From positions 1 to 64,000 of IMG/VR virus record IMGVR_UViG_3300008117_000445: a stretch of DNA of 64,000 nucleotides. One strand, written 5' to 3'. Source of the DNA: a virus. Shown piece after piece: positions 31,573-62,933 of this stretch (its first letter is position 1; every line of letters begins with the position of its first letter). The notes under the pieces were generated by a model. It made no database searches. It was not told where the DNA came from and saw nothing but the letters and a program-made list of their open reading frames with translations. A program made the position numbers and the translations under genes.

Positions 31573-33153
31573 TTATTGATAAACAGGTCCAATCTTTATA
31601 ACGTCAGCACCAAAACCTTTGTTTTTTAATGTGATTTCTTTTTCGTGTGGGTAAAGGATATTATTTTTAATTGATTCATAAAAGTCAATTAATTGTTTTT
31701 GAACTTCAACTTCAATCAAGAATCCTTTTGTTCCGTGTGTTTTATCTTTTGGTGACCTATAATGGTTTTTGATTAATTGTTTCTTGTTCATTGAGTAGTG
31801 ACTTCCAGGGTATTGTGTATCAATCGCATCTTCACTTTCAGCAAACACAACCCGATATAGTTTTAATGTTTCCGGTAGATTGTCATAATATTCCGTTAAG
31901 TCGTTTAATTCAAATATGGCATTATCATTTTCATAACCCATCTCATACAAACAACCAAGTAAGTTATCCGTATTATTTGCCGTTAATCTAACAAAACCTT
32001 CATTTAAATTATTTTCCTTATCTCGGTTCACTTTTTTGATTTCCAAAGGTGGATCCAATAGATATTTTTCATTCAACCAATGTCTCAATTCATTCTCAAC
32101 AAAAAACTCCGGAACTTCTTCATTGTCTGGTTTTTCTGAGGCGACTTCGGCAATGTGCCTGGCAAATTTAACTTTTAATTTATCATCCAACATGGTCATT
32201 AATCCATCGGAAATAAAAAAGATTTTGGACAATGGATCAGAAACACCCAACTCACCCTCAACAAGGTCAAACACCTTCATAATGGTTTTACCCCACCATG
32301 TTTTATATCCGGTAGTTTCTTCAAGTCCGGGTCTGAATATTTTATTAAACGCTCTAATAATTGAACCAGAAAAACCAGCCAGAGCAAGTTGGGGGAAGAA
32401 CCAAGGTAAAAGTCTCAATGTCGCCTTATAACCTCCTTCACCCACATGTAATAATAATCTATTTGTTTTTGCTTCTTCAACCAGTTCTTTTAATTGACCA
32501 AATGTGATTTTACCTTGAGCCTTACAGAATTTTTTGGCATCACAAATGTTTTTGATTGCTTTTGAGGATGGTGTTATATCTTCAGATATGGTGACAAACC
32601 CTTCATTCATTTTATTTTTTGTTTTCTTCAACAAACTTTTAATAAAAAACACAATTCCACTTAAAACGACTCCACTCAATAAAACCTGAATGTTATCCAT
32701 GGTTATACTTCTATCATTTATGATTGTATTAATAAGTTTCATAACCGGGTTCAATAAAAAAGCAAACCCCAATATTTCACTTAATGAATATGAAATACCC
32801 AACACGCTTTTTATAACGGTTCTTATGATGTCCAGGGTGTTCTTGATTAAATTTTTAACACCCTCAAGCGGTTTTGTTAGGTCAAGTTCTTTAATTTTAT
32901 TTAATAGTGAATCCTTATTTTTGTCATTAATTAAAAGTGCAACTGATGTTATAATTAAAAGAACAATTTCATTTTCATTTAATGAGAATCCAGAACCGGT
33001 TAATAACCTTTCCACTGGACCCATAAACGCACCCATTCCGGTACCAAAGGTAAATAAGATTCCGGTATTTATTTTAAGATCATTTAAGGTGTCCTTAAAT
33101 AAATTCTCATTTATTAATTCTAAATATTGTTCTTCTGTTAAAATTACTTTCAT
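31573..33153 (-). CDS. large membrane protein with shared N-terminal leader (MKVILTEEQYLELINEN)
   Basis: 526 aa, several TM segments (GILFTFGTGMGAFMG, VLLIITSVALLI, LLSGVVLSGIVFFI). Confidence 0.55.
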   Translation of the reverse strand: MKVILTEEQYLELINENLFKDTLNDLKINTGILFTFGTGMGAFMGPVERLLTGSGFSLNENEIVLLIITSVALLINDKNKDSLLNKIKELDLTKPLEGVKNLIKNTLDIIRTVIKSVLGISYSLSEILGFAFLLNPVMKLINTIINDRSITMDNIQVLLSGVVLSGIVFFIKSLLKKTKNKMNEGFVTISEDITPSSKAIKNICDAKKFCKAQGKITFGQLKELVEEAKTNRLLLHVGEGGYKATLRLLPWFFPQLALAGFSGSIIRAFNKIFRPGLEETTGYKTWWGKTIMKVFDLVEGELGVSDPLSKIFFISDGLMTMLDDKLKVKFARHIAEVASEKPDNEEVPEFFVENELRHWLNEKYLLDPPLEIKKVNRDKENNLNEGFVRLTANNTDNLLGCLYEMGYENDNAIFELNDLTEYYDNLPETLKLYRVVFAESEDAIDTQYPGSHYSMNKKQLIKNHYRSPKDKTHGTKGFLIEVEVQKQLIDFYESIKNNILYPHEKEITLKNKGFGADVIKIGPVYQ

Positions 33154-33156
33154 TTT

Positions 33157-33615
33157 TTATAATTTAAAACTATCTAATTTTTGATATAACCCCGAGTCCT
33201 TATATACATCAACATCTTCTACATTAAATTCAGGAAACATTTTTATCAATTCTTTAATAAAATCTCTTCTTACGTTTCTATATATTTCAACCATATCATC
33301 ACCTAATTTGATAAGAATTCTTTGTTCAATACCACTATTATAAACAATTAACGGTAACCCCCAAGATGATTTATTTTCTAATATATGAAGATGGTTATCA
33401 CGTAAAATGATATCACCACCCCTTTTTATTACATTTAAATCAGTAAAACAGGACATCAATATATCAATTATATTTTCTTCACCAATTATACTAAAAAGAT
33501 TTTTGAAACCACCAACCATTTCGGCAGTGTCAGCATAACCGTACTCTTCAATTGAATTAATTAAAGTTTGTTTTAATGACTCCTCTTTTAATATTTTTCT
33601 AATTAGTTGTTTCAT
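33157..33615 (-). CDS. leader-family protein (MKQLIRKILKEESLKQT)
   Basis: 152-aa ORF. Confidence 0.5.
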   Translation of the reverse strand: MKQLIRKILKEESLKQTLINSIEEYGYADTAEMVGGFKNLFSIIGEENIIDILMSCFTDLNVIKRGGDIILRDNHLHILENKSSWGLPLIVYNSGIEQRILIKLGDDMVEIYRNVRRDFIKELIKMFPEFNVEDVDVYKDSGLYQKLDSFKL

Positions 33616-33618
33616 AAA

Positions 33619-34005
33619 TTAAAAATTAACCCAAGCCTGCACCTTAAATTTTAAATCAATAGGTGAACCATAAGTGTACAGATCAAAAGAAAAATAATTT
33701 TTAAAAATATCTTCAATATCACTTCTTAATGGACGACTATTTTTTATTTCTTGATCTGTTAATTTAAATTTTAATGTGAATACCATTCTATCAACAACAG
33801 GATTCTCCATACCCAATTTTACGGATCCTAATTTAACTTTTTTCATACTTGTTTCAACTTCAAGTAAATTAGGAAATTCAGAATGAAGGTAATCAATTAT
33901 TTGGTCCTTCATACTTTCTAACCTACCCAACTCCTTATAGTAATGATCAATAAATTCTTGACCCTGAAGTTCCTCATTTAATATTTTTCTAATTAATTTC
34001 TCCAT
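33619..34005 (-). CDS. leader-family protein (MEKLIRKILNEELQGQE)
   Basis: track ORF 33619..34035, internal Met. Confidence 0.45.
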   Translation of the reverse strand: MEKLIRKILNEELQGQEFIDHYYKELGRLESMKDQIIDYLHSEFPNLLEVETSMKKVKLGSVKLGMENPVVDRMVFTLKFKLTDQEIKNSRPLRSDIEDIFKNYFSFDLYTYGSPIDLKFKVQAWVNF

Positions 34006-34058
34006 TATATCATAATAAATAGTTTGATATTTCAAAATAAATTATATATCTTTGTCCC

Positions 34059-35600: not shown

Positions 35601-35621
35601 AATTAGTTGTATATTTGTATT

Positions 35622-36691: not shown

Positions 36692-37903
36692 ATGAAAATC
36701 ATTATAACTGAATCTCAATTAAAACTTATTAAAGAAGCGGTTGGCGTTCCGGAAGGAATATTAAAAGCCGGTGAAGAACTATTTAAAATTGTTGCTTCCA
36801 ATCTAAAAAAAATCAACAATAAAGATAATAAACACGAATTCCACATAACTGAGGAAGAATTACAAATTTCTGATGTTACAATTGATTTCATTAAAATTAC
36901 AGTATCAGTTGAAGAAATTGAAGGTTATGATGGTAAGCCTGTTATCGCATCAATGGGTGTAAATAACGCATTTAGGTTTGATAAAGGAATAATGATGCAA
37001 GTAAGCAAAGTTGATAAGGTAATTGAATTGGAAATTAATTTCATTGTACCAAAAGAATGGGAACCGCAAGACTTATATGAAACATTCATATCAGACGAAA
37101 CACATAATGAATCAGTTATGGCCCACGAAATAATGCACAAATTTCATCGTACAAAAAAAACAAAAGGGTTTGTTGGCGACATTGCCGATTATCAAGCATA
37201 TTCATCTGGGAAAATAAGATTCAATATTCCGGTTCTTGATGATTTTATGCTATATAGTTATTATATCCAAGCTGCCGAAAATACTGTTAGACCAACTGAG
37301 GTTGCCTCAAGGATGATTAAAAAAGGAATAACAAAAGATCAATTTAAAGATTTTCTTAAAGAAGATGAGACATTTAAACAATTAAAACAAATCCAGAATT
37401 TTACTTATGATTATTTGATAAGTAGTTTACGTAAACAAATGGACAGAATTGATGGGTTAATAAAACATATTGGTGATGATCCGAGCAAAATGTCCGTAGA
37501 TTACAAAATTGAGTTTATTTTAAAAATAGCATATGTCAATCTCGTTAATTTAAAGATTGAAATATTTGATAACTATTTTTATGATAATGCGGAGAAGTTC
37601 CTTCAATCTATGGGTGGTTTGTTTGGTAAAGTGAGTAAAGAAAAAGAAGATGTTAGAAAAAAGTTCGTTAATCACGTTGTAAAATATGAAAATAAAGAAA
37701 TGGACTTTTTCAAAGACGAATGTGAACGGTTTAATTATGTTGCAACAAAACTTATGAAAAAAATATCAAAAATCTATGCACTCCTTCCTGATGAAAAGGA
37801 ACAAACAAATGAATCAATATTGGATTGGGAATTACACCAAAAACTTATGGAAAAGAAGTATGGTGAAAGACCAATTCAAAAATCTTATAATTTCAAAAAA
37901 TAA
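36692..37903 (+). CDS. putative HExxH zinc metallopeptidase with shared N-terminal leader (MKIIITESQLKLIKEAV)
   Basis: MAHEIMHKFH zincin motif. Confidence 0.45.
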   Translation: MKIIITESQLKLIKEAVGVPEGILKAGEELFKIVASNLKKINNKDNKHEFHITEEELQISDVTIDFIKITVSVEEIEGYDGKPVIASMGVNNAFRFDKGIMMQVSKVDKVIELEINFIVPKEWEPQDLYETFISDETHNESVMAHEIMHKFHRTKKTKGFVGDIADYQAYSSGKIRFNIPVLDDFMLYSYYIQAAENTVRPTEVASRMIKKGITKDQFKDFLKEDETFKQLKQIQNFTYDYLISSLRKQMDRIDGLIKHIGDDPSKMSVDYKIEFILKIAYVNLVNLKIEIFDNYFYDNAEKFLQSMGGLFGKVSKEKEDVRKKFVNHVVKYENKEMDFFKDECERFNYVATKLMKKISKIYALLPDEKEQTNESILDWELHQKLMEKKYGERPIQKSYNFKK

Positions 37904-41984: not shown

Positions 41985-42185
41985 ATGGAAAAAATTGAAA
42001 TATATGTAAGGTTCGCAAACGAAGGTGTTTATTATGACAAAATAAAGTTAGATCCTTCAAAAATAAGTAATCCAAGGATTTTTACTCAAGAAGTATTTTT
42101 TGATATTGACGGGATTACAGTGGCTACAAGAAAAGAAGATTGGCAAAAGATAGAACAATGGAAAGAAACTGGCAAAAAGAATTAA
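41985..42185 (+). CDS. hypothetical protein
   Basis: 66-aa ORF. Confidence 0.35.
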   Translation: MEKIEIYVRFANEGVYYDKIKLDPSKISNPRIFTQEVFFDIDGITVATRKEDWQKIEQWKETGKKN

Positions 42186-43219
42186 GAGAAATTTTAAAAA
42201 GAAATAATATGAGTGAAGAGTATATTGAAAAAACGGTAGAGTATGGTGATACAATACCTGAAGTAGAAACAACATATGATGAATATCCAGGAATTGAAGA
42301 ACCAGTTATTGGTAGAATAATGGATTCTGAAGAAGATAGAAAAATTGATGCTGACGTACCTTCTTGTTGGAGTAATTTAAAAAATAATGAATATGCGCCC
42401 GCATATGTTACAGTACCAAAGGTTCCTGCCGGTGTTTATGAAATAGGTTGGAATGGTAATTTACAAACTTATACCGTTAAAAAACAACCATTCAAGTCTG
42501 ATGAGTTATACCATCTACCGTCATATGAAATTACAGACATCTTAAAAGATATTGATAATTTTTGGAATAGAGCCGACAATTATAAAAAATACAACTATAT
42601 CCACAAAAGAGGCATTTTAATGTATGGTGAACCAGGTTGTGGTAAGTCAGGTATAATCCAATTAATATCACAACAACTAATTGAAAAAGATGGTATTGTA
42701 ATTAATATCAAAGATGAAGAAGATGTTGAAAGGTTCACATCATTTATTGGAACGTTTAGAAAAGTTGAACCAAAAAGACCATTGATTGTTTTATTGGAGG
42801 ATATTGATTCACTTGCTGGTGAAGGTAGAAGTCAAACTGCTAGATTATTAAACATACTAGATGGTGTTAAACAAATTGAAGGTGTTGTATATATTGCAAC
42901 AACAAACTACCCGGAGAAGTTACAGGAAAGAATCACCAACCGTCCGTCCCGTTTTGATAGAAGATATAAAGTGGAACTTCCAAATGAAGATATTAGAAGG
43001 GCTTATATTGAACATAAATTAAGTGAAGAAGATTTAAAAGGTATTGATATTGAGGAATGGATCAAAAAAACTGAAGGGATGTCATTGTCACACTTAAAAG
43101 AAGTTGTAATTTCGGTTATTGTTATGGGTAGAACTTTTGAAGAAACAATTGAAAATCTTGAAGGGTTGAAAAAAACACCAACAATTAAAGGTTCTGGTAA
43201 GATGGGGTTTGGAAAATAA
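42140..43219 (+). CDS. classic AAA ATPase
   Basis: Walker A GEPGCGKSG, Walker B LLEDIDS, second region of homology ATTNYPEKLQERITNRPSRFDRR. Confidence 0.8.
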   Translation: MAKDRTMERNWQKELREILKRNNMSEEYIEKTVEYGDTIPEVETTYDEYPGIEEPVIGRIMDSEEDRKIDADVPSCWSNLKNNEYAPAYVTVPKVPAGVYEIGWNGNLQTYTVKKQPFKSDELYHLPSYEITDILKDIDNFWNRADNYKKYNYIHKRGILMYGEPGCGKSGIIQLISQQLIEKDGIVINIKDEEDVERFTSFIGTFRKVEPKRPLIVLLEDIDSLAGEGRSQTARLLNILDGVKQIEGVVYIATTNYPEKLQERITNRPSRFDRRYKVELPNEDIRRAYIEHKLSEEDLKGIDIEEWIKKTEGMSLSHLKEVVISVIVMGRTFEETIENLEGLKKTPTIKGSGKMGFGK

Positions 43220-44909: not shown

Positions 44910-45357
44910 TTTTTCAACATACAAATTAAGAGGTGACGACCTTAAACTTATTAGGTTTGATTTCAACTTCAGATCATCAGATGCTTATGATGTGATATAT
45001 GACATATTAAACAATGATGAAAAGAGAAACGTTGGATTCATAACTACAAAATATCCAAATAGTACATCGGATTTAAATGATGAACAATATTGGGATATAT
45101 TATTATTGGACAACGAAGTTTTGTTTTACTTAGAGAATATGTTGGTTAAATATGGAATTGTTTATACAATCACTGATATTACGGACCAATATATTAAAAA
45201 ATCAAAAAAACTAGAAAAGGATTTCATTGAAGAAATTGACAATTATGTTGAAAAGTTATATGATGTTGATCAGATATTGGATAGGATTAATGAAGTTGGA
45301 CTTGACAAGATAAACAAATTTGAATTAAATTATTTACAAAAACAATCAAAAAAATGA
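44902..45357 (+). CDS. hypothetical protein
   Basis: 151-aa ORF. Confidence 0.45.
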   Translation: MIDFSTYKLRGDDLKLIRFDFNFRSSDAYDVIYDILNNDEKRNVGFITTKYPNSTSDLNDEQYWDILLLDNEVLFYLENMLVKYGIVYTITDITDQYIKKSKKLEKDFIEEIDNYVEKLYDVDQILDRINEVGLDKINKFELNYLQKQSKK

Positions 45358-46082
45358 ACTACGGAAAAGAATTTAGAAGTTTTGCAAAAAGTGAAGGAAT
45401 CAGTTCACTAACATTGGATCAGTTTGAATCATCACTAACACCATATATTTTGGAAGAAAGGGAATTAAGGGCAACCCAAATTGATATTTTCTCAAGATTA
45501 ATGGTTGATAGGATTATTTGGTTATCCGGACCCGTTGACCAACGAATGTCAGATATTGTCCAAGCCCAATTATTATTTTTGGATTCGGTTCAAAAAAAGG
45601 ATATTACACTTTATATTAATAGTCCTGGAGGTTCGGTTATGTGTGGGTTGGGAATTGTTGATTTGATGAATTATGTTTCTTCAGATGTGGTAACAACAAA
45701 CATTGGAATGTGTGCGTCAATGGGTTCCGTTTTATTATCATCCGGAACAAAAGGTAAAAGATCGGCTTTGGTTCATTCAAAAGTTATGACACATTTTGTT
45801 AGTCACGGAACAAAAGGAAATATCCAAGATACCAGAATTGACCAAATGGAAGGTGAAAAATATAACTACATATTATTTAAAATATTGGCCGAGAATTGTG
45901 GAAAAACATTTGATGAAATGTACGAAACATCCAGAAGAGATAAGTGGTTCAATTCTGACGAAGCCCTTAATTTTGGTTTGGTTGATGAGGTAATTGGTGT
46001 TGATAAGAACAAAACGATTACAAACTATTTGGAGGGATTTGACGACTATTACAAAAAAGAAGTTTTAAACTACAAAAAATAA
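45354..46082 (+). CDS. clpP: ClpP-family serine protease
   Basis: IDIFSRLMVDRIIWLSGPVDQ, INSPGGSV, active-site GMCASMGSVLL, full-length alignment to ClpP fold. Confidence 0.8.
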   Translation: MNYGKEFRSFAKSEGISSLTLDQFESSLTPYILEERELRATQIDIFSRLMVDRIIWLSGPVDQRMSDIVQAQLLFLDSVQKKDITLYINSPGGSVMCGLGIVDLMNYVSSDVVTTNIGMCASMGSVLLSSGTKGKRSALVHSKVMTHFVSHGTKGNIQDTRIDQMEGEKYNYILFKILAENCGKTFDEMYETSRRDKWFNSDEALNFGLVDEVIGVDKNKTITNYLEGFDDYYKKEVLNYKK

Positions 46083-48742: not shown

Positions 48743-49105
48743 ATGGATATGACACGAATTATTTTAACCGAAGAAGAAAAAGGTGATTTGTTAAGTAAAC
48801 ACGAAGAAATTGATAGAAAGATTATGAACTTTTTATTAAGAAGATATAGTGTTGAAGAAAAAACAATCGGAGAAGATGATGACGCAATTAAGTGGGTTGA
48901 GGTTAATTTTGTTGATTTTCCAATGTACGGTTTCAACACTTTTATGAACCGAAAGGATATGGAATGGAGAATCCTTAATATGTTGGAAGATGCCGAAAAA
49001 CTAAACGCTGACGAATTTAGGTACAATAGACAATTGGACAAAAACAAACAAAAAACAATTAAAACAATCCGAGCTTTTTTAAATTTTGTATTACCTGTAA
49101 AATGA
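48743..49105 (+). CDS. hypothetical protein
   Basis: 120-aa ORF. Confidence 0.45.
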   Translation: MDMTRIILTEEEKGDLLSKHEEIDRKIMNFLLRRYSVEEKTIGEDDDAIKWVEVNFVDFPMYGFNTFMNRKDMEWRILNMLEDAEKLNADEFRYNRQLDKNKQKTIKTIRAFLNFVLPVK

Positions 49106-50787: not shown

Positions 50788-51551
50788 AAACAATAAAACT
50801 TACAGACGATCAAAAAAAGAACTTACACAAACCAAACCTGTATTTACAAGCGGTTTTTTCTGAAGGCATTGAATGGAATCGTTGGGTTGAATCAGAAGAA
50901 GGGTATGATTATCATGAAACTTATGGACCAACACCATCCGGACCTAGTGGTTACGATAGAAAAAATGAGTTGGATCCAATATTTAATGATGTGGGATTGG
51001 AAATACTTAACATAATGGCCGAAAATATTATTAATGATAGTGAAGATGAAGTATATGCTAATTTGGATTGTTACGATTGTAGTGGTGGAGGTCATATATA
51101 CGTTAATTACCAACCGGAAGATCAAACGTTCACTTTATTACTTGACAAATATTTAACTTTAACCAATGAAGAATATTTTTCCAAAACATTTAATGAATGG
51201 GCGAATGTTGAACCACAATATGAATGGCACCGAATCCCAAAAGACATAAAAAAATTGTTGGATCCAGATTTTATTGAAAAATATAAAAATGAAGGTGAAA
51301 ATGGGATTTTTGAAATCACATATAATGGTTATGGTGATAGTGGTGAAATTGAAACACCAGTAGATTTACCAGATGAAATTGAATATTTGGGTTATGCGAT
51401 AATAGATGTTTATTTCAGTGGTTGGGAAAATAATCAAGGAGCTGACGGTGAAATCATAATTGATTTCAACAAACAAACAATTTCCATAAGACATGACCAA
51501 CGTTACGAAGAAACCGAAAGAGTTGAGCTTAAAAAAATACAATTAGTTTAA
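50784..51551 (+). CDS. hypothetical acidic protein
   Basis: 255-aa ORF. Confidence 0.45.
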   Translation: MKTIKLTDDQKKNLHKPNLYLQAVFSEGIEWNRWVESEEGYDYHETYGPTPSGPSGYDRKNELDPIFNDVGLEILNIMAENIINDSEDEVYANLDCYDCSGGGHIYVNYQPEDQTFTLLLDKYLTLTNEEYFSKTFNEWANVEPQYEWHRIPKDIKKLLDPDFIEKYKNEGENGIFEITYNGYGDSGEIETPVDLPDEIEYLGYAIIDVYFSGWENNQGADGEIIIDFNKQTISIRHDQRYEETERVELKKIQLV

Positions 51552-52375
51552 TGGAAAAACTACAAGAAAATATTGTTAGAATTAAAAAATTAATGTTGGT
51601 TGAGAATGAAACATCAATTAACAAATACATTGACATTGTTGATTCGGAAGATAATAATCCAAATAATCTGGAAATTGAGTTTATTCAGAAAAACAGACGA
51701 TTTGCCAAAATGTTAAACACAATCTTATTTGAGTTATATAAAGATAATCTGGATTGGAATGAAGATAAAAGTAAGTTTGGCATTGTCGGAGTTTACACAT
51801 TAAATGATTTTACCAATTGGTCCATTTTAAATTATTTTGGTGGACACAAATTCGTAAAAAACAGATTATTAGATAACTTCAAAAAATCAAATCAAGGTGA
51901 TACACCAAAAGATTTTTATCAGTGGATAATTGATAACAAAGAAACATTATTAAAGGATGGTCCATTATTAAAAGAACTCATTAGGGCAAATATGAATACC
52001 TACAACAAGGGATGTATTACAGAAAAATATGTTATTGAAAAATTAAAAAATAAGGGTTTCAACATTAAATATTATCCTCCAGGTTCAACACAAGATAGAG
52101 ATCAAGGAATTGATATTGAAGTTAACGGAAACTCATTCCAGGTAAAGGAATTTACTGGTATGTCAGAAAAAGATGGAAAAATTCTACTAAATACACCTTT
52201 TCCAAAAAACTATCTAGGTATGGACGTTCAACGAATTATGTTGGTTAATATTTCCAATGGTGATTTTGTCTCGTTTCCAAATAAAGATTACATAATTGAC
52301 ATTAAGGATAATTGTTACGTTTTGGATTTACAACTAAAAAGTCAAATCAAATCCGGAAATTTCAATAAATTATGA
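51551..52375 (+). CDS. leader-family protein (MEKLQENIVRIKKLMLVE)
   Basis: 274-aa ORF. Confidence 0.45.
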   Translation: MEKLQENIVRIKKLMLVENETSINKYIDIVDSEDNNPNNLEIEFIQKNRRFAKMLNTILFELYKDNLDWNEDKSKFGIVGVYTLNDFTNWSILNYFGGHKFVKNRLLDNFKKSNQGDTPKDFYQWIIDNKETLLKDGPLLKELIRANMNTYNKGCITEKYVIEKLKNKGFNIKYYPPGSTQDRDQGIDIEVNGNSFQVKEFTGMSEKDGKILLNTPFPKNYLGMDVQRIMLVNISNGDFVSFPNKDYIIDIKDNCYVLDLQLKSQIKSGNFNKL

Positions 52376-52387: not shown

Positions 52388-53416
52388 ATGAGTGAAGCAG
52401 CAAGAGAACTATTAGACGAATTTAATGACGGTAATTGGAATGAAGTTGGTTCGTATTTCAACGACGACTTTGAAACATTTTTAGATTATCTAGAAAAAAA
52501 TGGTTTAGAAGGTGAATTAGATTATGAAAATGTTGACGATGAATGGCAAAATATAATATTACTTCGTAAATTAGAAAAATATCCTCAAGAGACATTAAAC
52601 TACATTTGTGATAATATAATTACAGATGTTTATTATATGGAAGGTGGATATTATCTATATCTAAGAGAAAGAGAAGAACTGGCAATTCTATTTAGTAATT
52701 CAGGAAGAGACTTTAGTTCAAGAGATGCCGCTGAAAAAGTATTAAGTGAAGACTTTTGGGATCCTTATTGGGACACAACAGATGATGTTTATAGTGATGT
52801 GATTGATGAACTAAATGAGGAAAATAAAAATCATTTAGCAAACTATATTGTAAAAATTATGGGGAACCAAGAATTATCACTTAATGATTATGATGATGGA
52901 CTATTTGAACAATTCTCAGAAAAACAAGGAACCGAAGGGGTTTTTAAAATAGATAGTGAAAATGTAATGCAACTTATTGGTGACGAAATGGCAATGAAAG
53001 AATTGTTTAGTAAAGATCTTGATGAATTAAAAAGTGAATTATATTCTTTACATAATAACGCATATAACGGAGCATATACTGATGAAATATATGATAGTGT
53101 ATGGAGTGAACTTTCAGAATACTTTGAACCAAAATCATGGAAATATGAACAAAAAGATAGATACGATGGTAAAAAAATTCAACATGAATATATTAAAATA
53201 AAAGATTTTTATAATGATATTCATACCTTTTTAAGTGAAAATGAAGATAGACAGTGGTCAGATCAAAGTTTAGAGTATTGGGGTTCATATACTGGATTTG
53301 TTTCACATATGATGGATAACGGAGAAAGGAGTTGGTTAGATTTTAGAATACCAGACTATCCAGATTGGACATTAATCAAAAAGAACATAAATGATAATTT
53401 AGATTCGTATATCTAA
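52388..53416 (+). CDS. hypothetical acidic protein
   Basis: 342-aa ORF. Confidence 0.45.
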   Translation: MSEAARELLDEFNDGNWNEVGSYFNDDFETFLDYLEKNGLEGELDYENVDDEWQNIILLRKLEKYPQETLNYICDNIITDVYYMEGGYYLYLREREELAILFSNSGRDFSSRDAAEKVLSEDFWDPYWDTTDDVYSDVIDELNEENKNHLANYIVKIMGNQELSLNDYDDGLFEQFSEKQGTEGVFKIDSENVMQLIGDEMAMKELFSKDLDELKSELYSLHNNAYNGAYTDEIYDSVWSELSEYFEPKSWKYEQKDRYDGKKIQHEYIKIKDFYNDIHTFLSENEDRQWSDQSLEYWGSYTGFVSHMMDNGERSWLDFRIPDYPDWTLIKKNINDNLDSYI

Positions 53417-54351
53417 TGAAAGTAATAGTAACACAAAAACAACTTGAACAAATTAGAGAAAATGTATCTAAAAAATTTAGTTGTGAAAAATGTGATCATT
53501 CCTGGAAAATAGAAAAAGAAGATAAACATCCATATCTATGTCATATGTGTGGTTATGATTCTGCAAAAGAAAAACATAACTACGACGAACTTGAAAACTT
53601 TTGGAAGAACTATAAAAAAGAAGAAGAGGTTACAGAAAAATGGTCAGAGAAATATAAAAAAAGTATTAACTGTAGTAACCCTAAAAAAATATTATCAACG
53701 GTGATTGAATTTGCAACACCTGAAATAAAAAACATTCTTAATGATGAAAATATCACTATAACCTATGAAATAGAACCTCATAGATATTCAGAATTAGGTT
53801 TTTACACTATCATCACAACATTAAATATTTTAGATAAAAATAGTAACACAATAAAATTAAGTTTGACTGAGAAAGAAGACATTATTGATATTCTTTTTGA
53901 TTATTTAAGTTATATGGGGGAAGATCAACAAACCGAAACATATGACTATAGTTTTGATTTTAAAAAATATAAAATTTCTTATAACTTGAATGAAAATGAT
54001 CAAACACACTTGAGATTAAAAAAATATGGTTACGACATTGAAAAAATAAAACAAGCCCTTCAAATGCTATCTCAAGTTTCAGAATCGGTTGGTGAATTTG
54101 TTCCACTAGAATTTAAACTATATGGTTATCATTTAAGAAAGTTTAATACTGGGTTGCCTGTGTTAATACTTTTTATTGATGTAGATACAGAAGGTGGTGT
54201 TTATAATACTATGAGCGAAAATTGGCACGACATCGGAATGCAATTATTAGATATTTTTCAAATGTTGGGTATTAGAGACGAGAGATATATGAGACCTATG
54301 TATGATTTTAAATTTAATAAAAGATCATTAGATAACATCACAATTGTTTGA
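53416..54351 (+). CDS. leader-family protein (MKVIVTQKQLEQIRENV) with Zn-ribbon
   Basis: CEKCDHSW...CHMCGYD. Confidence 0.5.
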   Translation: MKVIVTQKQLEQIRENVSKKFSCEKCDHSWKIEKEDKHPYLCHMCGYDSAKEKHNYDELENFWKNYKKEEEVTEKWSEKYKKSINCSNPKKILSTVIEFATPEIKNILNDENITITYEIEPHRYSELGFYTIITTLNILDKNSNTIKLSLTEKEDIIDILFDYLSYMGEDQQTETYDYSFDFKKYKISYNLNENDQTHLRLKKYGYDIEKIKQALQMLSQVSESVGEFVPLEFKLYGYHLRKFNTGLPVLILFIDVDTEGGVYNTMSENWHDIGMQLLDIFQMLGIRDERYMRPMYDFKFNKRSLDNITIV

Positions 54352-54682: not shown

Positions 54683-54712
54683 AGAAAGTCAGGGCAAACT
54701 CCTGACTTTTTT
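54683..54712 (+). terminator. rho-independent terminator
   Basis: AAAGTCAGGgcaaactCCTGACTTTTTTG. Confidence 0.6.
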
Positions 54713-54734
54713 GTTTGGTTCAATATTTATTAGT

Positions 54735-55640
54735 ATGTTATTCAAAAAACGTGATTTGGTTACTGAAGATACCAGTGAAGAAAGTGTCATTAAAAAAGTG
54801 ATATCAAAATTAAAAGATGTTAAACAAAGAGCAACATCCGAAATAAAGGAAACCAGGGCTCTTGTTAGGATTTTAACACACGCTGTAAAATCTTATAGTA
54901 AAAAAAGAGATTTTGACTTAAACGAACAAGATAAAAAATTTATTAAAGGACAATCAACTGATGTGATTAAAAACATCATAATTATGATTGTTGCCATTAT
55001 ACCTTTACCAATACCATTAACTCCATTTTTGGTGATATTTGGAAAAAAACTTGGAGTTGACTTTATACCTCAAGAACAAGAAATACCAGAAAAGGGAAAA
55101 TCCAAAAAAGAAAAAGTTGAGGAATCAAAAAAGTTAAATATTGTAATAACCAAAGAACAATATGAGTTATTAAATGAGATTAACAAAACAGATAAAAATA
55201 GACTTCAGAGACTTTGTACAAATCAAAAAGAAAATAAACCATTTTGTAGTTTACTACAAATGAGAGAAAAACTAACTGATATTGATCAAGTACAACTTGA
55301 TAAATCAGTTAATATATTGGACGATTATTTTAGATTCAGTAACGTTGGGATGTTTCCTCGTATTGTTGAATTAGCACTTAAAGATGAAGGGAGAACTATC
55401 AACTATTTAAAATTGATTTCAGACTTTATTGTGGACGATCAATTTGATGATACCAATACTAAAAAAATATTGGATAAACAACGTTTTTCAAAAGATGTTC
55501 CGGAAAATTTGGATGATATTTTAAAACAAGCCAGAACCTTGGAACATCAAAAATATGAAGAAAGTTTTGTTGGTTACTCAGGGAAGTTATTATTTAAAGG
55601 CCGATCTTGTAACAACAAAAGATTTAAAATACGAAGGTGA
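54735..55640 (+). CDS. membrane protein carrying an internal copy of the leader motif (LNIVITKEQYELLNEINK at ~aa 140)
   Basis: N-terminal TM segments (IIIMIVAIIPLPIPLTPFLVIFG); track ORF 54711..55640. Confidence 0.45.
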   Translation: MLFKKRDLVTEDTSEESVIKKVISKLKDVKQRATSEIKETRALVRILTHAVKSYSKKRDFDLNEQDKKFIKGQSTDVIKNIIIMIVAIIPLPIPLTPFLVIFGKKLGVDFIPQEQEIPEKGKSKKEKVEESKKLNIVITKEQYELLNEINKTDKNRLQRLCTNQKENKPFCSLLQMREKLTDIDQVQLDKSVNILDDYFRFSNVGMFPRIVELALKDEGRTINYLKLISDFIVDDQFDDTNTKKILDKQRFSKDVPENLDDILKQARTLEHQKYEESFVGYSGKLLFKGRSCNNKRFKIRR

Positions 55641-56088
55641 GGTTATATTTCCAACAGGGACTTATTTTGAAGTTAAAAAAATGGATCCATTCATTGACAG
55701 TTATTTATCTGAGTTCTTCTCAATATTTAAAGAAACCGAAAAAATTGTATTTAAAGGTGAATACGTTGAACTTTATAATGAATTAATCCAAAGGATTTTT
55801 GAATGGTTAAATAATAACGAAGATGCTGAGGAATATTTGGATAAAGTTAAGTCACAAATCGGTGGAATAATTTATGAATATCAAACAATAGTACCAAGTG
55901 AATTTATTGATCTTTATTGGTCAAACAAAGGTCAACGTGGTTGTGATGAAAAGAGACTATCAATTAGGTTTAGAATTAAACCGGGCGTAAGTGAAATAAA
56001 AACATTTAGATTTGTTGATAGTGAAGAACTTGAACCAGTGGTTAAAAAGGTACCATATAATCAAAATGAAAAAGTTATTTGTATATGA
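55555..56088 (+). CDS. hypothetical protein (start uncertain; overlaps previous gene by ~85 nt)
   Basis: 177-aa ORF. Confidence 0.35.
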   Translation: MKKVLLVTQGSYYLKADLVTTKDLKYEGEVIFPTGTYFEVKKMDPFIDSYLSEFFSIFKETEKIVFKGEYVELYNELIQRIFEWLNNNEDAEEYLDKVKSQIGGIIYEYQTIVPSEFIDLYWSNKGQRGCDEKRLSIRFRIKPGVSEIKTFRFVDSEELEPVVKKVPYNQNEKVICI

Positions 56089-56375
56089 AAATAATAGTAA
56101 CGGAAGAACAATTTAGGGGACTTTTAGAATCACAACAAGATGATGAACGCGTTGTAAGAAACGCACTATACAGCATTTGGCAAGATGAACTTGACTCAAT
56201 AGGAGAAATTGACTTTGACCCAAAGATTGCAAATTATATAGGTTACAAACAAATAGGACATGTTCACGAAATATATAGAGATTTTCTTGGTGGTTGGGAC
56301 AATATGGTTGAAAAATCATTTGAACTAATGGATAGAACTTTTGATACTATGGATTATAATTTTAGTGGTGGATAA
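56088..56375 (+). CDS. leader-family protein (MKIIVTEEQFRGLLESQ)
   Basis: first of four tandem leader-family genes. Confidence 0.5.
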   Translation, partial: KIIVTEEQFRGLLESQQDDERVVRNALYSIWQDELDSIGEIDFDPKIANYIGYKQIGHVHEIYRDFLGGWDNMVEKSFELMDRTFDTMDYNFSGG

Positions 56376-56428: not shown

Positions 56429-56833
56429 ATGAAAATAATAATAACAGAAAGTCAGTACAAAATGTTATTGGAATCAAATACTGAATCTATGCAAAGTCTT
56501 ATTGACCTTGCGTTTGATGCTGTAAAAGAAAATTGTGAAAAAGGTTATTACGTAATGGCACACCATGATTATATATGTAACCCAATAGAAATGATTGAAG
56601 AAATTAAAGTTGTTGAGGTATCAAAAAAACAAGTAATGGATTACTTTGAAAAAGATAAAAATGATATAATCAATATAACTGTTGATTTTTATATTGACTC
56701 TATTCGTGAATATAATAATTTAGATAATTTTATTTACGAATTACAAGAAGAAGCGAGAAGTGTTGTTGGTGGTAAATTTATTACGATAAATTATGGAGAA
56801 GTGATTAATAAAAGAAAAAACTTTGATTGGTGA
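56429..56833 (+). CDS. leader-family protein (MKIIITESQYKMLLESN)
   Basis: second of tandem array. Confidence 0.5.
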   Translation: MKIIITESQYKMLLESNTESMQSLIDLAFDAVKENCEKGYYVMAHHDYICNPIEMIEEIKVVEVSKKQVMDYFEKDKNDIINITVDFYIDSIREYNNLDNFIYELQEEARSVVGGKFITINYGEVINKRKNFDW

Positions 56834-56835
56834 TG

Positions 56836-57657
56836 AAAATAATAGTAACGGAAGAACAATTAAACCATTTAGTTGAAAACGTGAGTCCTTGTCCTAAAGG
56901 GAAAAAAGAAGATAAATTAGTGACGTTAAATGACCTTAAAAGGGGTTCAATAATTGAAAAAGGTTATTGTAATTCCAATAGTGAATCGGCGATTGTTAAA
57001 ATACAAAAAATGTTACAAGATAAAGGACTTTTGGATAGAAGTAGTTATCCAGGTTATTATGGTGATAAAACACAAGAAGCCATAAAAAAGTTGTTTACTG
57101 GGATTAATGTAACCGGTCAAAAAATAGGCCCAAAAACTTTAACAAAGTTAGAAACACCAAAAAAATCAGAAACTGTAACCAAAAAAAGTGGACTCGTAAG
57201 TAAAGTTGAAGCTGAAAAATTATTTAATGGATTAAGTTATAGTGAAAAAGTTTTAGTTTGTACATTATTAGGTGAAGCCGGAGGTGAAAAAAATCCAAGA
57301 AACGCAATGACCGCAATAGCTAATGTTTTAAGAAATAGAGCTAAAAAAGGACATTTAAAAAAAACAACAATGGTTGACCAAGCCTTAGCACCATTTCAAT
57401 TCTCTATGTGGAATAATAAAAGTACCTCAACCGTTTTTAATGAACTTAAAAATCACGGACAAATGGCAACTGCAATTGATATAGTAAAAAATATTAATTC
57501 ATTATCCGACATTACAAATGGGGCACTATATTATTACGCAAATTACGTTTCACCAAATTGGGCAAAAAATACAGATACAACTATATGGAAGGAAACGGCG
57601 GAAATAGGTAAACATATATTTGGAAATGTGTTACCTAAACGAAAAAAAAGAAAATAA
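56836..57657 (+). CDS. leader-family cell-wall hydrolase: PG-binding domain + SleB-like Hydrolase_2
   Basis: MKIIVTEEQLNHLVENV leader; IVKIQKMLQDKGLL..YYGDKTQEAIKKLF (PG_binding_1); LVCTLLGEAGGE...NVLRNR...APFQFSMWN (cell wall hydrolase SleB family). Confidence 0.6.
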   Translation, partial: KIIVTEEQLNHLVENVSPCPKGKKEDKLVTLNDLKRGSIIEKGYCNSNSESAIVKIQKMLQDKGLLDRSSYPGYYGDKTQEAIKKLFTGINVTGQKIGPKTLTKLETPKKSETVTKKSGLVSKVEAEKLFNGLSYSEKVLVCTLLGEAGGEKNPRNAMTAIANVLRNRAKKGHLKKTTMVDQALAPFQFSMWNNKSTSTVFNELKNHGQMATAIDIVKNINSLSDITNGALYYYANYVSPNWAKNTDTTIWKETAEIGKHIFGNVLPKRKKRK

Positions 57658-58225: not shown

Positions 58226-58264
58226 ACAATTTTCTTTTTAAACAATCTAAACTATTATTACAAT

Positions 58265-58516: not shown

Positions 58517-58517
58517 A

Positions 58518-58832: not shown

Positions 58833-58837
58833 AAAAA

Positions 58838-59002: not shown

Positions 59003-59058
59003 AAAACAATATTCACGTAAAGAAAAACATAAAAAAAGATTTTGATATAAATTAAAAA

Positions 59059-59085
59059 AGGAAGTGAATTACTTCCTTTTTGTTA
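59059..59085. terminator. bidirectional rho-independent terminator
   Basis: AAAAAAGGAAGTgaattACTTCCTTTTTG. Confidence 0.6.
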
Positions 59086-59367: not shown

Positions 59368-59562
59368 ATAACAAAGATAAGGAAAATATTTCTATTGACC
59401 TAACTCTTTGTAATATTTTTGAAGAAGTTTGTTGTTATTTTCAATCAATCTTAAAGTTTTTTTGATGCTCTTTAACGATTTACCTTTTGTTCCTTGTTTT
59501 TTTGCTTTTGCCATTTTACTTTAGTTTAGTTATAAATATTATTAAAGTGATATTTATACTTT

Positions 59563-59976
59563 ATGAGACGGTTAATTAGAGAAAATCACAACAAACAAAA
59601 ACTAAGAGAAAATCTTGAAACCTTAATTTATATAATTGAGACAAATAAAAAAACAAATCTTATTGAATCAATTGAACTTACAGATGTAAACTATTATGAA
59701 AAATCAGGATCATTTGATGCTGAAATTAAAGTTAAAAGTTGGTTTGAAGAACATGATTTGACCGCGTTAGCTGATACATTAAAAGAAATTGATAGTGATA
59801 TATGGCAAACAATGGGACGTTATGAATTTGATAAAAATTTAAATATTAAAAAAATACCTATACACGGTTTTTCAAATTTAATGTGGGCAACAACTGCCGT
59901 TGATTGGGACATACAAACAAATCAAGATTTAAATATTAGATTCGCAATTATCCAAGATAAATTTAGAGATGAATAA
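59563..59976 (+). CDS. leader-family-like protein (MRRLIRENHNKQKLREN)
   Basis: 137-aa ORF. Confidence 0.45.
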   Translation: MRRLIRENHNKQKLRENLETLIYIIETNKKTNLIESIELTDVNYYEKSGSFDAEIKVKSWFEEHDLTALADTLKEIDSDIWQTMGRYEFDKNLNIKKIPIHGFSNLMWATTAVDWDIQTNQDLNIRFAIIQDKFRDE

Positions 59977-61861
59977 TTTAATTCAAAATATAATCAGAGA
60001 AGAAACGGATCAAAGTAAATTATATTTGAAGGGTATAGATATTACTGTATCAATCCTAAAAAAATATTATCCATTTATAATTGGTTGGGAGTTAAAAAAC
60101 GAATACACATCATTTTTTGAAATTGATGTGATATGTGATATTAATAAAACATCTGAATTTTATGATAGTCCGATACTTCCTGAGTTTTTTGAATATGGTT
60201 TCAGATCGGTTCCTTATCCGCACTGGTTACTTGATTTATGTAATAAATTAAATGAGGATGAAAATTTCGCTTTATACAGAGATATAAAGAATGAACTCAA
60301 CGAAATATACGATGAGATTCCTAATGAATTTAAAAAATTATTTGGTACCGCCAAAAATGTGTATTTAGACATTACAATTGATAGGTTCATATTCGTTAAT
60401 CCAGAAAAACTTGAAGAATCAAAAAGAGTTAACTTAAAAGAAAAATATAAAATACCCAAAGATGAATTTGTTGAATTATATAGGGATAATGATTTTATTT
60501 TGACAATACCATTAACACACGAAGCATCAAAGAAATATGGTTCTGACACCAAATGGTGTACGACAACCAAAGAGTGTTCAAAAAAGTTTGAGGATCACAC
60601 AAATTTAGGTGTTTTAGGTTATATTACAATAAGAGATAAAGAACTAAAAAATAAGTTAGAAAATAACGCCTTTGCTTTATATAGATTGTATGGTGACGAC
60701 GTAAATAGAACCATAGTTTTTGATGATCAAAACAATGAATATAGAAACGGAGAGCAATGGTTATCCAACAAGTTTGATAGAGTTGATAAGTTGTTTCAAT
60801 TTTACAAAATGTTTAGAAATTTCAATGAGTATTTTGAAAAACAAAATGTTAAAAAACAAATTAACGAATCTGAAGATAGACCAAATAAAGAGATTATTAA
60901 TAATGTAGTAAACGAATTAATATTACCAAATTATAAAGATGTTATTTGTGATATTGAATATATTGATAAAGACGAAAGATTAGATTTTTGGGGTGAACCA
61001 TCCTTTAATCAATCTAGAGTTACTATTACCTTTATTGGTGAAAAACCATTAAAAATTAAAGAACGGGACAAATATGATAATATAATGAATGAAATTTGGG
61101 ACACAATTCACGATTATGTGGGTATAAGTGTTGATCTTTATGCGAGGTATAGTGATAAGTGTGAAAAAGAAAATATAAATGAATCTAAAGACAGACCAAA
61201 CTATTTGGGTGTAATTGAAAAATTGGTTACCAGTTATAAAGATAGGGAATTTGTTTGTGATGTTGAGGTTTTATACGATGAAGAAGATGATTTTTATGTT
61301 GTAACATTATGGTTTGATCCAGAACAAATGGGTGAAAGACCTGATTTTTATGTTAAAAATTTAAGAAAAGAATTAACCACCGAAATTAAAAATTATCTAC
61401 CAATAGATAATATATATGTTGGTTCCGGTGGTAATGTTGGTTGTAGTAAGAAACGAATAACAGAAAATAAAATTCCATCATCAGATTATAATTCGTTAGA
61501 GAAGGTTATGAATCTGGTAATGGAAGAAAAATATGATTGGTGGAAAGATATAAAAATTAATAACATATTCAACTGGGGTGGACCCAATGATTATAATAAC
61601 TACACAAATATAGAAGCCGAAATAACAGTTGACGAAGATTGGGGCGGTAACCAATGGAATGAATATAATCCTCATATGGAATTTCCTGGAAATAAAGGGT
61701 GGGAAGATAATGAAGAATACGAACTAGTGAGTCTTGGTGACATAATTGGGTCAAACTTAGCTAACGAAATAAGAGAAACCATTTCGGAAGTTTTAAAATA
61801 TACATTAGGTATTGAAATAAACACAATGTCCTTTAGGAATTTAATGTTAATTTTTGAGTAA
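59969..61861 (+). CDS. large leader-family protein (MNNLIQNIIREETDQ) with internal domain duplication
   Basis: 630 aa; NESEDRPNKEIINNVVNEL... and NESKDRPNYLGVIEKLV... mark two copies of a ~100-aa module. Confidence 0.5.
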   Translation: MNNLIQNIIREETDQSKLYLKGIDITVSILKKYYPFIIGWELKNEYTSFFEIDVICDINKTSEFYDSPILPEFFEYGFRSVPYPHWLLDLCNKLNEDENFALYRDIKNELNEIYDEIPNEFKKLFGTAKNVYLDITIDRFIFVNPEKLEESKRVNLKEKYKIPKDEFVELYRDNDFILTIPLTHEASKKYGSDTKWCTTTKECSKKFEDHTNLGVLGYITIRDKELKNKLENNAFALYRLYGDDVNRTIVFDDQNNEYRNGEQWLSNKFDRVDKLFQFYKMFRNFNEYFEKQNVKKQINESEDRPNKEIINNVVNELILPNYKDVICDIEYIDKDERLDFWGEPSFNQSRVTITFIGEKPLKIKERDKYDNIMNEIWDTIHDYVGISVDLYARYSDKCEKENINESKDRPNYLGVIEKLVTSYKDREFVCDVEVLYDEEDDFYVVTLWFDPEQMGERPDFYVKNLRKELTTEIKNYLPIDNIYVGSGGNVGCSKKRITENKIPSSDYNSLEKVMNLVMEEKYDWWKDIKINNIFNWGGPNDYNNYTNIEAEITVDEDWGGNQWNEYNPHMEFPGNKGWEDNEEYELVSLGDIIGSNLANEIRETISEVLKYTLGIEINTMSFRNLMLIFE

Positions 61862-61863
61862 AA

Positions 61864-62559
61864 ATGAAACAACTAATTAGAAAAATATTAAAAGAAGAAA
61901 TTAACAAGAAGTTTACAAAACCTAATGAGAAATTAGATAGTCTTGTTTATAATTGGTTAGACAACTATTTTGAAGGTTCACAAATTTACAAAGAAGAATA
62001 TTGGAAATATTATGGTTTCACATACCAATTTTGTAAAAATAGTAGAGAAATTGCAGATTTAAGAATTGAATTTGATGACAGAAGCCCTGATTGGGGACCA
62101 AGTGATAAAAGACCAACAAGTGAAAGAAGTGTTAAAGAAGTAATGTTATACATTTATCCTATTATGGTAAATGAGTTAGTTACAGATATACCAATTAGAA
62201 AAAACTATTTATTATATCTTATTGAAGAATGGTTTGAAGATACAAAATTAGATGAAATCCAACAAGAGTTCAACAGAAATGATTTATCTTTAGATTATGT
62301 TTCCGTATTTGAAAGTAGAAAAAGAGGAGATATATGTGTTCCACCACCAACAAAACCTGAAGGTGTAACAATGCAAGAAATGATGGATTACATCAAAAAA
62401 AATACTTTGTTTTCTTACAAAGACATGGAAGAACATGAAGAAGATGAACCAGGTTGGATTGAAAAAACATATTTAGGAAAACTTCAAGGAAAAGAAAAAG
62501 AAAGAATTAATCAAGAAGATAGAGAAAATAATCCTGAACCATTTGATGATAGATATTAA
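61864..62559 (+). CDS. leader-family protein (MKQLIRKILKEEINKKF)
   Basis: 231-aa ORF. Confidence 0.5.
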   Translation: MKQLIRKILKEEINKKFTKPNEKLDSLVYNWLDNYFEGSQIYKEEYWKYYGFTYQFCKNSREIADLRIEFDDRSPDWGPSDKRPTSERSVKEVMLYIYPIMVNELVTDIPIRKNYLLYLIEEWFEDTKLDEIQQEFNRNDLSLDYVSVFESRKRGDICVPPPTKPEGVTMQEMMDYIKKNTLFSYKDMEEHEEDEPGWIEKTYLGKLQGKEKERINQEDRENNPEPFDDRY

Positions 62560-62564
62560 ATAAG

Positions 62565-62933
62565 ATGAATCTACAAGAAAACATAAGAAGAATATTAAAA
62601 GAAGAAACAGAAGGTATGTCACCACTAGAGCAGACAGTTGCTGATTTTATTAATATGAATCTATCTGAATATGATTTACCAGAAGACTTTGATAGAGTTG
62701 CCGTAGATATATTTGATAATGAATATGATAGAAAAGAGTGTGTAGTGACCATATTATTTGAGAAACCATTTAATTTAAAAGATTCAGATAGAATGCATGA
62801 TATAATGAATGAAATAAAAAAAGAAATCAAAAAATATTTTGGTGATACTTTTTGGTATATAAAATTAGGAACATCGACGGTAGATGTTTATAACAGTACC
62901 AAAGATTGGTACACCAAAAGAAAGAATAAATAA
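62565..62933 (+). CDS. leader-family protein (MNLQENIRRILKEETEG)
   Basis: 122-aa ORF. Confidence 0.5.
   Translation: MNLQENIRRILKEETEGMSPLEQTVADFINMNLSEYDLPEDFDRVAVDIFDNEYDRKECVVTILFEKPFNLKDSDRMHDIMNEIKKEIKKYFGDTFWYIKLGTSTVDVYNSTKDWYTKRKNK

Follow-up and report, generated by a model that had tools for sequence, protein, structure and literature searches.

In bacteriophage T4, the internal proteins, Alt, and gp24 carry N-terminal propeptides that bind the scaffolding core, so that these proteins are enclosed in the prohead (PMC9026906, PMC3012670, PMC5694885). These capsid-targeting sequences (CTSs) are 10–19 residues long (PMC9026906). They are removed by gp21, which cuts after glutamate (PMC9026906, PMC5694885) and whose cleavage motif is Leu/Ile-x-Glu. 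For IPIII, the first 10 residues are sufficient, with residues 4 and 7 acting in targeting and residues 8 and 10 in processing (PMC9026906, PMC3012670, PMC5694885). The internal proteins of T-even phages are highly diverse, and the CTS is the only part that they have in common (PMC3012670). Here we describe short N-terminal leaders in a stretch of 64,000 nucleotides of viral DNA (positions 1–64,000 of IMG/VR record IMGVR_UViG_3300008117_000445; hereafter, the window). About one gene in 10 of the window has such a leader, and we propose that the leaders may act like the T4 CTS, on a far larger scale.

As a putative propeptide, the leader is of similar length to the T4 CTS (11–22 residues, against 10–19), and it also lies at the N-terminus, begins with Met-Lys, has spaced hydrophobic residues, ends in hydrophobic-x-Glu, and sits on otherwise unrelated, fast-changing proteins. 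For instance, the N-termini of T4 gp24 (MAKINELLRE) and Alt (MELITELFDE) have a hydrophobic-hydrophobic-x-Glu end, as the leader does. Contigs that bear leaders also have, like T4, head genes of the gp20, gp21, and gp23 types. However, there is no demonstrable homology between the CTS and the leader; the shared pattern spans about 10 residues and is too short for a significance test. Furthermore, the T4 CTS is found on a handful of proteins, while the leader is found on ~10% of genes and over 100 families, in three variants. Sigma factors, wall hydrolases, and membrane proteins are also among what the leader carries, in contrast to the T4 CTS, and the fate of this cargo is predicted from sequence.

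The giant myoviruses phiKZ, 201phi2-1, and SPN3US also have a gp21-related protease that cuts after glutamate, and about 50 proteins are packaged in the heads of phiKZ-like phages, some of them enzymes and one with a membrane segment. In this group, the paralogues gp53 and gp54 have an identical 15-residue N-terminus, and SPN3US has a processed ejection protein with a transmembrane segment (PMC5694885), which is a precedent for membrane proteins as cargo. But the propeptides of phiKZ-like phages are mostly over 100 residues long, are cut at Ser/Ala/Gly-x-Glu or Ala-x-Glu, and are not common to unrelated families. The leader has 11–22 residues, with Leu or Ile (or Val) two residues before the glutamate, so we rejected a phiKZ-type propeptide. 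Further afield, the RxLR motif of oomycetes and the PEXEL motif of Plasmodium are short conserved N-terminal motifs that define large, diverse, and sequence-predictable repertoires (PEXEL is also a protease site). The organisms and the machinery are entirely different, and the analogy is of logic only.

The leaders are of three related types: A (MKIIITESQYKKLLEE), B (MKQLIRKILKEE), and C (MKKIIRLTESDLTRIVKRVIKE). To avoid circularity, we built profile hidden Markov models (HMMs) of the three types from leaders outside the window only, and then scored the window. Twelve of its ~117 genes are robust members (seven of type A, four of type B, and one of type C; scores are in Table 1). Another two or three are diverged, and there is one internal relic. 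An earlier note on this DNA (the original prediction) had described a dispersed leader family and had proposed a shuffled-sequence control for it. In 23,400 composition-preserving shuffles of the window's N-termini, none reached 10 bits for A or B, and the best score for C was 14.6 bits, versus 52.5 bits for the real type C leader. These shuffles, together with the near absence of the type A pattern from 596 Gb of prokaryotic genomes (see below), rule out chance or a compositional artefact.

The family is thus real and extends beyond the window, but the original prediction's count of at least 15 proteins in two variants becomes 12 robust and two or three diverged members in three variants. The genes that we call type A (the tandem array, 36692, 53416, and 31573..33153 on the minus strand) were all identified correctly, with scores of 19.7–34.1 bits. 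Among the genes that had been assigned to a second variant, the HMM for type B detects 33615(-), 34005(-), 61864, and 62565; those at 59969 and 59563 can be recognized only via their homologues; and the gene at 51551 is not detected by any of the three HMMs. The first gene of the window (77..406) had been listed with the second variant as well, but its leader is the long type C instead. In a six-frame scan of the window, a regular expression for type A matched at the N-termini of open reading frames (ORFs) only, namely in the seven members and, weakly, in an eighth at 48755. There was no support for 48743 as a member.

The first half of type C (KIIITESQY) overlaps with type A, and the second half (LIRKILKEE) with type B. 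When the C model was run on the window, the next-best scores were mostly from genes with type A or B leaders. The type B protein from 33157..33615 clusters with type A cargo and aligns in register with an A-bearing homologue (L019:5642-6157), with KILKEE of the B leader over KLIKEN of the A leader. The best reading is that the three leaders are variants of a single short N-terminal address tag, whose core appears to be a basic amphipathic helix that ends in hydrophobic-x-Glu.

When we aligned the leader genes at their starts, conservation began at the ATG, and the upstream DNA was not conserved. Conservation is confined to residues 1–16 (type A), 1–12 (type B), or 1–22 (type C); in type A, information content falls to the background level beyond about residue 16. 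Positions of type A that were not constrained by our search pattern are conserved nevertheless: Ser/Asn/Glu at 8, Lys at 11, and Leu/Ile at 13 (93%). Within the leader, all synonymous codons are used, at frequencies near those of the gene bodies, and Ser8 is encoded by both TCN and AGY codons, so selection acts on the peptide. The unconserved upstream DNA and the varying synonymous sites rule out a DNA-level element. Recombination at a conserved DNA segment seems plausible. The tandem array consists, at least in part, of diverged paralogues (the cargo of 56085 and 57659 falls in one cluster).

Just upstream of leader genes (-60 to -1, in the window and the other loci), the terminator-like GGGTTTT and GGTTTTT, as well as GTATTTA, are 3–4.5 times more frequent than upstream of other genes. 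This suggests that many leader genes may be separate transcription units with a common promoter-like element.

We scanned a viral collection with a degenerate DNA pattern for type A and found at least 156 matches on at least 120 contigs. Among the matches listed, 95.5% head ORFs of at least 50 amino acids (aa), with a median of 191 aa, and nearly all are at the first ATG that follows an in-frame stop. The contigs listed have ~30% G+C, and many are 100–320 kb. Tandem arrays of leader genes are common on them, with up to six leader genes in 5.4 kb. In 1.09 Mb of viral loci from the contigs listed, plus the window, the leader heads a protein 233 times and occurs internally 6 times (181:5 for A, 32:1 for C, and 20:0 for B). 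When 596 Gb of prokaryotic genomes was scanned for the type A pattern, only 106 loci matched, and most of these were short spurious ORFs or belonged to two unrelated gene families. By our reading, about 10 are genuine; these are mostly on small AT-rich contigs, which were mostly binned to Bacteroidota lineages.

Two cultured freshwater isolates of Bacteroidota, Aquirufa beregesia (L193; a 17-kb contig with 150x coverage) and Aquirufa aurantiipilula (L217; a 392-kb contig), have a 35-aa ORF that begins like a canonical type A leader (MKVIITENQLERLLDS). This may be a clue to the host or a prophage remnant. At L128 and about 30 more loci from Veillonella, a conserved 272-aa Veillonella parvula protein starts with MKVIMTEEQY; the resemblance to the leader looks coincidental, because the similarity stops at residue 10. 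Some orthologues of leader genes are truncated, but stop-codon recoding was ruled out as the cause: L121 has a frameshift-like disruption with all three stop codons.

No model from Pfam, PHROG, or NCBIfam covers the leader in scans of the leader proteins. Neither the array, nor two cargo proteins, nor the consensus peptides of the leaders had a match among GenBank phages by megablast or tblastn (the peptide queries, with 22–23 aa, lack statistical power). A word-index protein search with a 40-aa N-terminal alignment returned 12 short fragments and nothing else. A full-text search of the literature with motif strings and topic terms did not find any description of the leader.

To compare the cargo, we removed the first 22 residues and clustered the remainders with BLASTP (1e-5). 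The 225 distinct leader proteins from the 1.09 Mb of viral loci form 111 clusters without detectable similarity to each other. The leader is a self-contained module on many unrelated proteins and is conserved at the protein level; the claim that its cargo is diverse was well founded. Most of the cargo did not match any family in Pfam. Among the domains that were matched are phage lysozyme, Hydrolase_2, LysM, PG_binding_1, sigma-70 regions 2 and 4, inorganic pyrophosphatase, cREC_REC, and zinc fingers. The cargo also comprises Zn-ribbon and membrane proteins. Five of the multi-member clusters have mixed leader types (such as 17 A with 2 B, or 4 B with 2 A), and homologous cargo may carry A or B or C.

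Two large families illustrate how tightly the leader is kept. The protein from 36692 has 955 homologues, and 120 of the 120 listed have both the HExxH motif and the leader. The leader of this family has either a 15-residue A form or a 21-residue C-like form; both forms place Leu/Ile-x-Glu directly before an invariant AVGVP, and E15 is invariant. The protein had been labeled as metalloprotease-like because of its HExxH. This motif is indeed invariant in the homologues, but neither a Pfam scan nor a fold search of the model identified a metalloprotease family or fold. The protein from 57659 has 159 homologues, and the leader or a one-residue variant of it is present in 120 of the 120 listed. Models of the cargo of these two families did not have significant matches to PDB structures. 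For type C, a representative search with the protein of gene 77 gave 32 matches, 28 of which begin at residue 1 of the target.

The hydrophobic-x-Glu end is far more common than expected. It is present in 78% of type A leaders (background, 17%), in 30 of 30 type C leaders (background, 14%), and in 20 of 20 type B leaders, partly by definition. In 93% of type A leaders, Leu or Ile lies two residues before the terminal glutamate. The motif had already been suggested to be a protease site, which is consistent with its excess over background and with the gp21-family protease on other leader contigs.

We used AlphaFold2 with deep alignments to model two unrelated families. The mean predicted local distance difference test (pLDDT) score was 90.5 for the family of 57659 and 76.7 for the family of 36692, which had a predicted template modelling score (pTM) of 0.53. 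For residues 1–10, the mean pLDDT was just 49 and 39, respectively; it is at least 85 from residue 21 onwards (at least 86 for 57659). So in these two families, the tag is the best-conserved segment and yet the least confident part of the model. Because of the low confidence in both models, we do not consider the leader to be modelled within the fold of the cargo. Rather, it appears to behave like a linear motif that is read by a partner.

The leader does not have the features of a secretion signal. It has three or four consecutive hydrophobic residues followed by T-E-x-Q, and no 19-residue window is above the hydropathy cut-off. The lack of a hydrophobic core of ~10–20 residues behind a basic N-terminus, or of a twin-arginine motif, excludes Sec, lipoprotein, and Tat signals, while ordinary signal peptides are found on other genes of the window (such as 17201 and 28465). 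A double-glycine leader is excluded too, as glycine is rare at positions 14–20 (at most 10 of 143).

Several leader-bearing contigs have T4-type head genes. Searches with T4 proteins against the ORFs of leader loci found homologues of gp21, gp23, gp20, gp17, gp18, and gp25, and Pfam hits on the leader contigs include Peptidase_S77 (80 and 76 bits, with a cut-off of 27), Gp23 (247 bits), and Portal_T4 (267 bits). Peptidase_S77, which is the gp21 family, was found on L041 (11252-11950), L044 (5473-6156), and 3300031787_000001; L044 also encodes a scaffold-like protein (6239-7477). This protease has over 567 relatives in the viral collection, on contigs of up to 334 kb, and a leader locus accompanies it on one 287-kb contig. 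Among cultured phages, its closest relatives are of the T4 type (43% identity to Microcystis phage Mel-JY01 and 33% to KVP40). Combining L041, which has the protease side, and L025, which has the scaffold-like and capsid side, gives the composite gene order protease, C-leader protein, A-leader protein, 81-aa gene, scaffold-like 437-aa gene, capsid gene. In L036, a B gene and an A gene are immediately upstream of the terminase and the portal, and the leader genes of L019 are interspersed among gp25-like baseplate genes.

In three loci, a 250-aa protein lies between the portal and the protease (L232 5062-5811, L295 6496-7248, and L275 6504-7250), which is the position of T4 gp67/gp68. It has a leader-like stretch near its N-terminus (LTKLTESYSK...ILNLIKE). 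Conceivably, the tag mimics part of a core protein.

We propose that the leader is a CTS-like capsid-targeting propeptide, as on the internal proteins of T4. We favor this because of the leader's position, its length, its detachment from the cargo's fold, the diversity of the cargo, the hydrophobic-x-Glu end, and the presence of the right family of protease. We give the proposal a probability of roughly 0.5. We infer that the leader proteins would bind the prohead core and would be cleaved, packaged, and injected. First, the tag would bind the scaffolding core of the assembling prohead, so that any protein that carries it is built into the capsid. Then, the phage's serine protease of the T4 gp21 type would cut after the terminal glutamate. 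Finally, the freed cargo would be injected along with the DNA at the next infection. A broader claim, that a large, uncultured clade of T4-type giant phages uses a three-variant code to send about a tenth of its gene products, from over 100 families, into the capsid for co-injection, is more tentative, and we lean slightly against it.

Several observations weigh against our proposal. There are no head genes in the 64-kb window, and its link to the T4-type contigs is indirect, via common leaders and modest homology of cargo to L060 (which has a sheath gene) and L019 (gp25-like). Between the window's genes and the protease-centred loci, we found a single weak link, from 59969. Strong leader ORFs are also sparser around the protease (26 in 872 kb) than in the window (12 in 64 kb). 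Because the loci were chosen for the leader, its adjacency to head genes is partly expected by chance. As to the motif, hydrophobic-x-Glu is missing from the boundary window in 22% of type A leaders, and it could be no more than the end of an amphipathic helix. The sigma factor and pyrophosphatase cargo could equally act solely inside the producing cell. The internal relic (in 54711-55640) is still well conserved, although persistence at such a site is not expected of a tag that needs a free N-terminus. Finally, we found no enrichment of the T4 late-promoter motif TATAAATA ahead of leader genes (5.5% versus 6.0%), but this result is uninformative about the timing of expression.

We also considered that the leader might be a docking peptide for some other common partner, such as a phage chaperone, an AAA+ translocase, a membrane assembly site, or a phage-made compartment, and that it sorts proteins within the infected cell. 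A tag that is conserved, amphipathic, basic, and of low model confidence, and that is found on cargo of every kind, would suit this role. Most leader genes are outside of structural modules, in arrays of small genes, and the internal relic suggests that the motif can persist without a free N-terminus. AAA+ translocases have been proposed by Iyer et al. to load folded proteins into the heads of jumbo phages (PMC7824862), which would fit with docking as well. The three variants could mark separate destinations, but the types interchange on orthologous cargo, which argues against this. Docking also does not explain the fixed hydrophobic-x-Glu end beside the cargo, and no candidate receptor was identified. 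Overall, docking seems unlikely, though likelier than the other two alternatives.

Another alternative is that the leader is an N-terminal degron or adaptor signal, by which proteins would be handed to the phage's ClpP, together with an unfoldase of the host or the phage, and removed at a set time. The window encodes both ClpP and an AAA ATPase (Table 1), L121 has ClpP near an orthologue of the 526-aa leader gene, and the tag is N-terminal with low model confidence. One class of N-terminal signals for ClpX consists of Met, a basic residue, and three hydrophobic residues. However, the strictly conserved polar residues of the leader (T6, E7, and Q9) are not known features of that class, and type B, which does not have the hydrophobic run, substitutes for type A when the cargo is homologous. 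The sole AAA protein found in the window is of the classical kind (PF00004), without a ClpX-type domain by Pfam, and we found no link between this ClpP and the leader. Also, destruction seems an unlikely fate for a highly conserved 403-aa protein with 955 homologues, or for the products of genes in head and baseplate modules. We consider a degron to be improbable.

Least probable of all is that the leader is an expression-level element (acting in translation initiation or as a nascent peptide) or merely the inherited start of a fast-diverging family of paralogues: the coding is A/U-rich with ATA somewhat over-used (46–57%, versus 37% in gene bodies), no Shine-Dalgarno-like signal is visible upstream, and some members of the array are paralogues, but every synonymous codon occurs, Ser8 uses two codon families, conservation is sharply bounded, the leader heads established domains that arose independently (lysozyme, sigma-70, pyrophosphatase, and Hydrolase_2), and the 111 cargo clusters have no detectable similarity.

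If the leader is a CTS-like signal, then it represents a known mechanism in a new and greatly expanded form, and the injected proteome could be read from sequence for a clade of abundant freshwater and marine giant phages that has no cultured member. Of all injected viral proteomes that are predictable from sequence, this would be the largest by a wide margin. Injected cargo would act before any phage gene is expressed, so dozens of new families would become candidates for anti-defence or host takeover, and sigma factors among the injected proteins would give the phage a new means of starting its transcription programme. The leader would also provide a small tag with which foreign proteins could be loaded into capsids, a use to which the T4 CTS has already been put. 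If the mechanism is different, then a 16-residue motif under strong selection on over 100 families would be an uncharacterised protein-sorting signal, and a handle on its receptor.

Table 1. Leader genes of the window, the internal relic, and two genes that bear on the degron alternative
Feature	Coordinates	Strand	Evidence
Type A, 96 aa, MKIIVTEEQFRGLLES	56085..56375	+	HMM A 26.7 bits; opens the tandem array
Type A, 134 aa, MKIIITESQYKMLLES	56429..56833	+	HMM A 34.1 bits; orthologues P0001-P0003; 7-member cargo cluster
Type A, 274 aa, PG_binding_1 and Hydrolase_2, SleB-type cell-wall hydrolase	56833..57657	+	HMM A 28.9 bits
Type A, 188 aa	57659..58225	+	HMM A 29.2 bits; member of the largest cargo cluster
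Type A, 403 aa, invariant HExxH	36692..37903	+	HMM A within 19.7–34.1 bits; widely conserved in the phage group
Type A, 311 aa, MKVIVTQKQLEQIRENV then CxxC...CxxC	53416..54351	+	HMM A 19.7 bits; orthologues P0008-P0010; 13-member cargo cluster
Type A, 526 aa, three hydrophobic membrane-like segments at ~57–170	31573..33153	-	HMM A 23.6 bits; hydropathy; orthologues P0004-P0007
Type B, 152 aa, MKQLIRKILKEE	33157..33615	-	HMM B 28.2 bits
Type B, 128 aa, MEKLIRKILNEE	33619..34005	-	HMM B 12.0 bits (shuffles all <10)
Type B, 231 aa, MKQLIRKILKEE	61864..62559	+	HMM B 23.9 bits; cargo cluster with 4 B and 2 A
Type B-like with 6-residue N-terminal extension, 122 aa, MNLQENIRRILKEE	62565..62933	+	HMM B 14.7 bits (12.7 in the six-frame scan)
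Diverged type B, 630 aa, MNNLIQNIIREE	59969..61861	+	HMM B 5.1 bits; homologues canonical
Degenerate type B, 137 aa, MRRLIRENHNK	59563..59976	+	Homologue L108:10787 (MKEIIRKVLKED) aligned from residue 1
Type C (long), 109 aa, MKKIVRLTERDLTRIVKRVIKE	77..406	+	HMM C 52.5 bits
Internal type A relic, LNIVITKEQYELLNE	55134..55178	+	Residues 142–156 of the 309-aa gene 54711-55640
Possible further variant, 274 aa, MEKLQENIVRIKKLMLVENE	51551..52375	+	Membership uncertain
ClpP-family protease	45354..46082	+	Pfam CLP_protease 180 bits
Classical AAA ATPase	42140..43219	+	Pfam AAA (PF00004) 63 bits

For the cell-wall hydrolase in the array (56833), the Pfam hit to Hydrolase_2 is 49.8 bits and the hit to PG_binding_1 is just below threshold (22.5 bits, with a cutoff of 23); PHROG describes it as endolysin-like. 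The 526-aa gene is the last in a trio of leader genes on the minus strand, in the order B-B-A. Among the diverged members, the 630-aa protein from 59969 aligns from residue 1 with homologues that have canonical B leaders (L014:8434, MKQLIKQILKEE, and L014:8907, MKNLIRHILKEE), while 59563..59976 has no HMM support by itself. The gene at 51551 has a different conserved N-terminus, in which homologues keep LQENIxRIK; this resembles 62565. The gene is related at best.

The leader-like segment that had been noticed inside 54711-55640 does align with residues 1–15 of a stand-alone leader protein (L053:3508-4629; 41% identity over 153 aa). The segment's first codon is TTA, which rules out an internal start, so the segment is evidently a relic that marks a gene fusion. 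L030, L099, L014, and L067 also have the gene in its fused form.

Immediately upstream of a leader gene, the window encodes a 342-aa protein (52388-53416). Homologues with 37–58% identity adjoin leader arrays in at least 10 leader loci. This conserved neighbor is possibly a functional partner of the leader genes.

The window has ~30% G+C and dense coding, mostly on the plus strand, and has no near match among GenBank phages. For the AAA ATPase, the best phage matches are from uncultured phages of 460–595 kb (~40% identity). At the window's left end, identical copies of the first gene's protein are found on 11 metagenome contigs, each of 18 kb or less. In the sister contigs L123 and L124, a phage-encoded SmpB gene (L123 8099-8440 and L124 8030-8440) is located ~1.6 kb upstream of the counterpart of the window's first gene, beside an RNase H-like gene and an N6/N4 methyltransferase; no tmRNA was detected within the window. 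A tRNA cluster follows (1244-2609), with four ARAGORN calls, two of which have odd anticodon loops. Rfam confirms three of the four and adds another tRNA at 8554-8632. The call that Rfam does not confirm (2157-2234) has the anticodon CUA and is of the amber-suppressor type. Among the window's long ORFs, TAG is the rarest stop codon (6 of 82).

Next to these, on the minus strand, are a TnpB-like transposase gene (2971-4239), with OrfB_IS605 and Cas12f-like TNB domains; a 970-aa fibre-like protein with YadA-head repeats (4906-7818); and, beside the fibre gene, a leaderless wall amidase with PG_binding_1 and Amidase_2 domains (8761-9690). Given this amidase, the leader-bearing hydrolase at 56833 is not the sole candidate for lysis, and the amidase is the likelier endolysin or tail lysin.

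The window also encodes an RNA ligase and a thymidylate synthase, which is directly followed by a GIY-YIG endonuclease gene (21132-22770), an arrangement that recalls td/I-TevI of T4. A block of genes for SprB- and PKD-repeat proteins (26233-29610), with ordinary signal peptides and reversed GC skew, may encode surface proteins derived from the host. The SprB repeat presumably indicates a host from the Bacteroidota.

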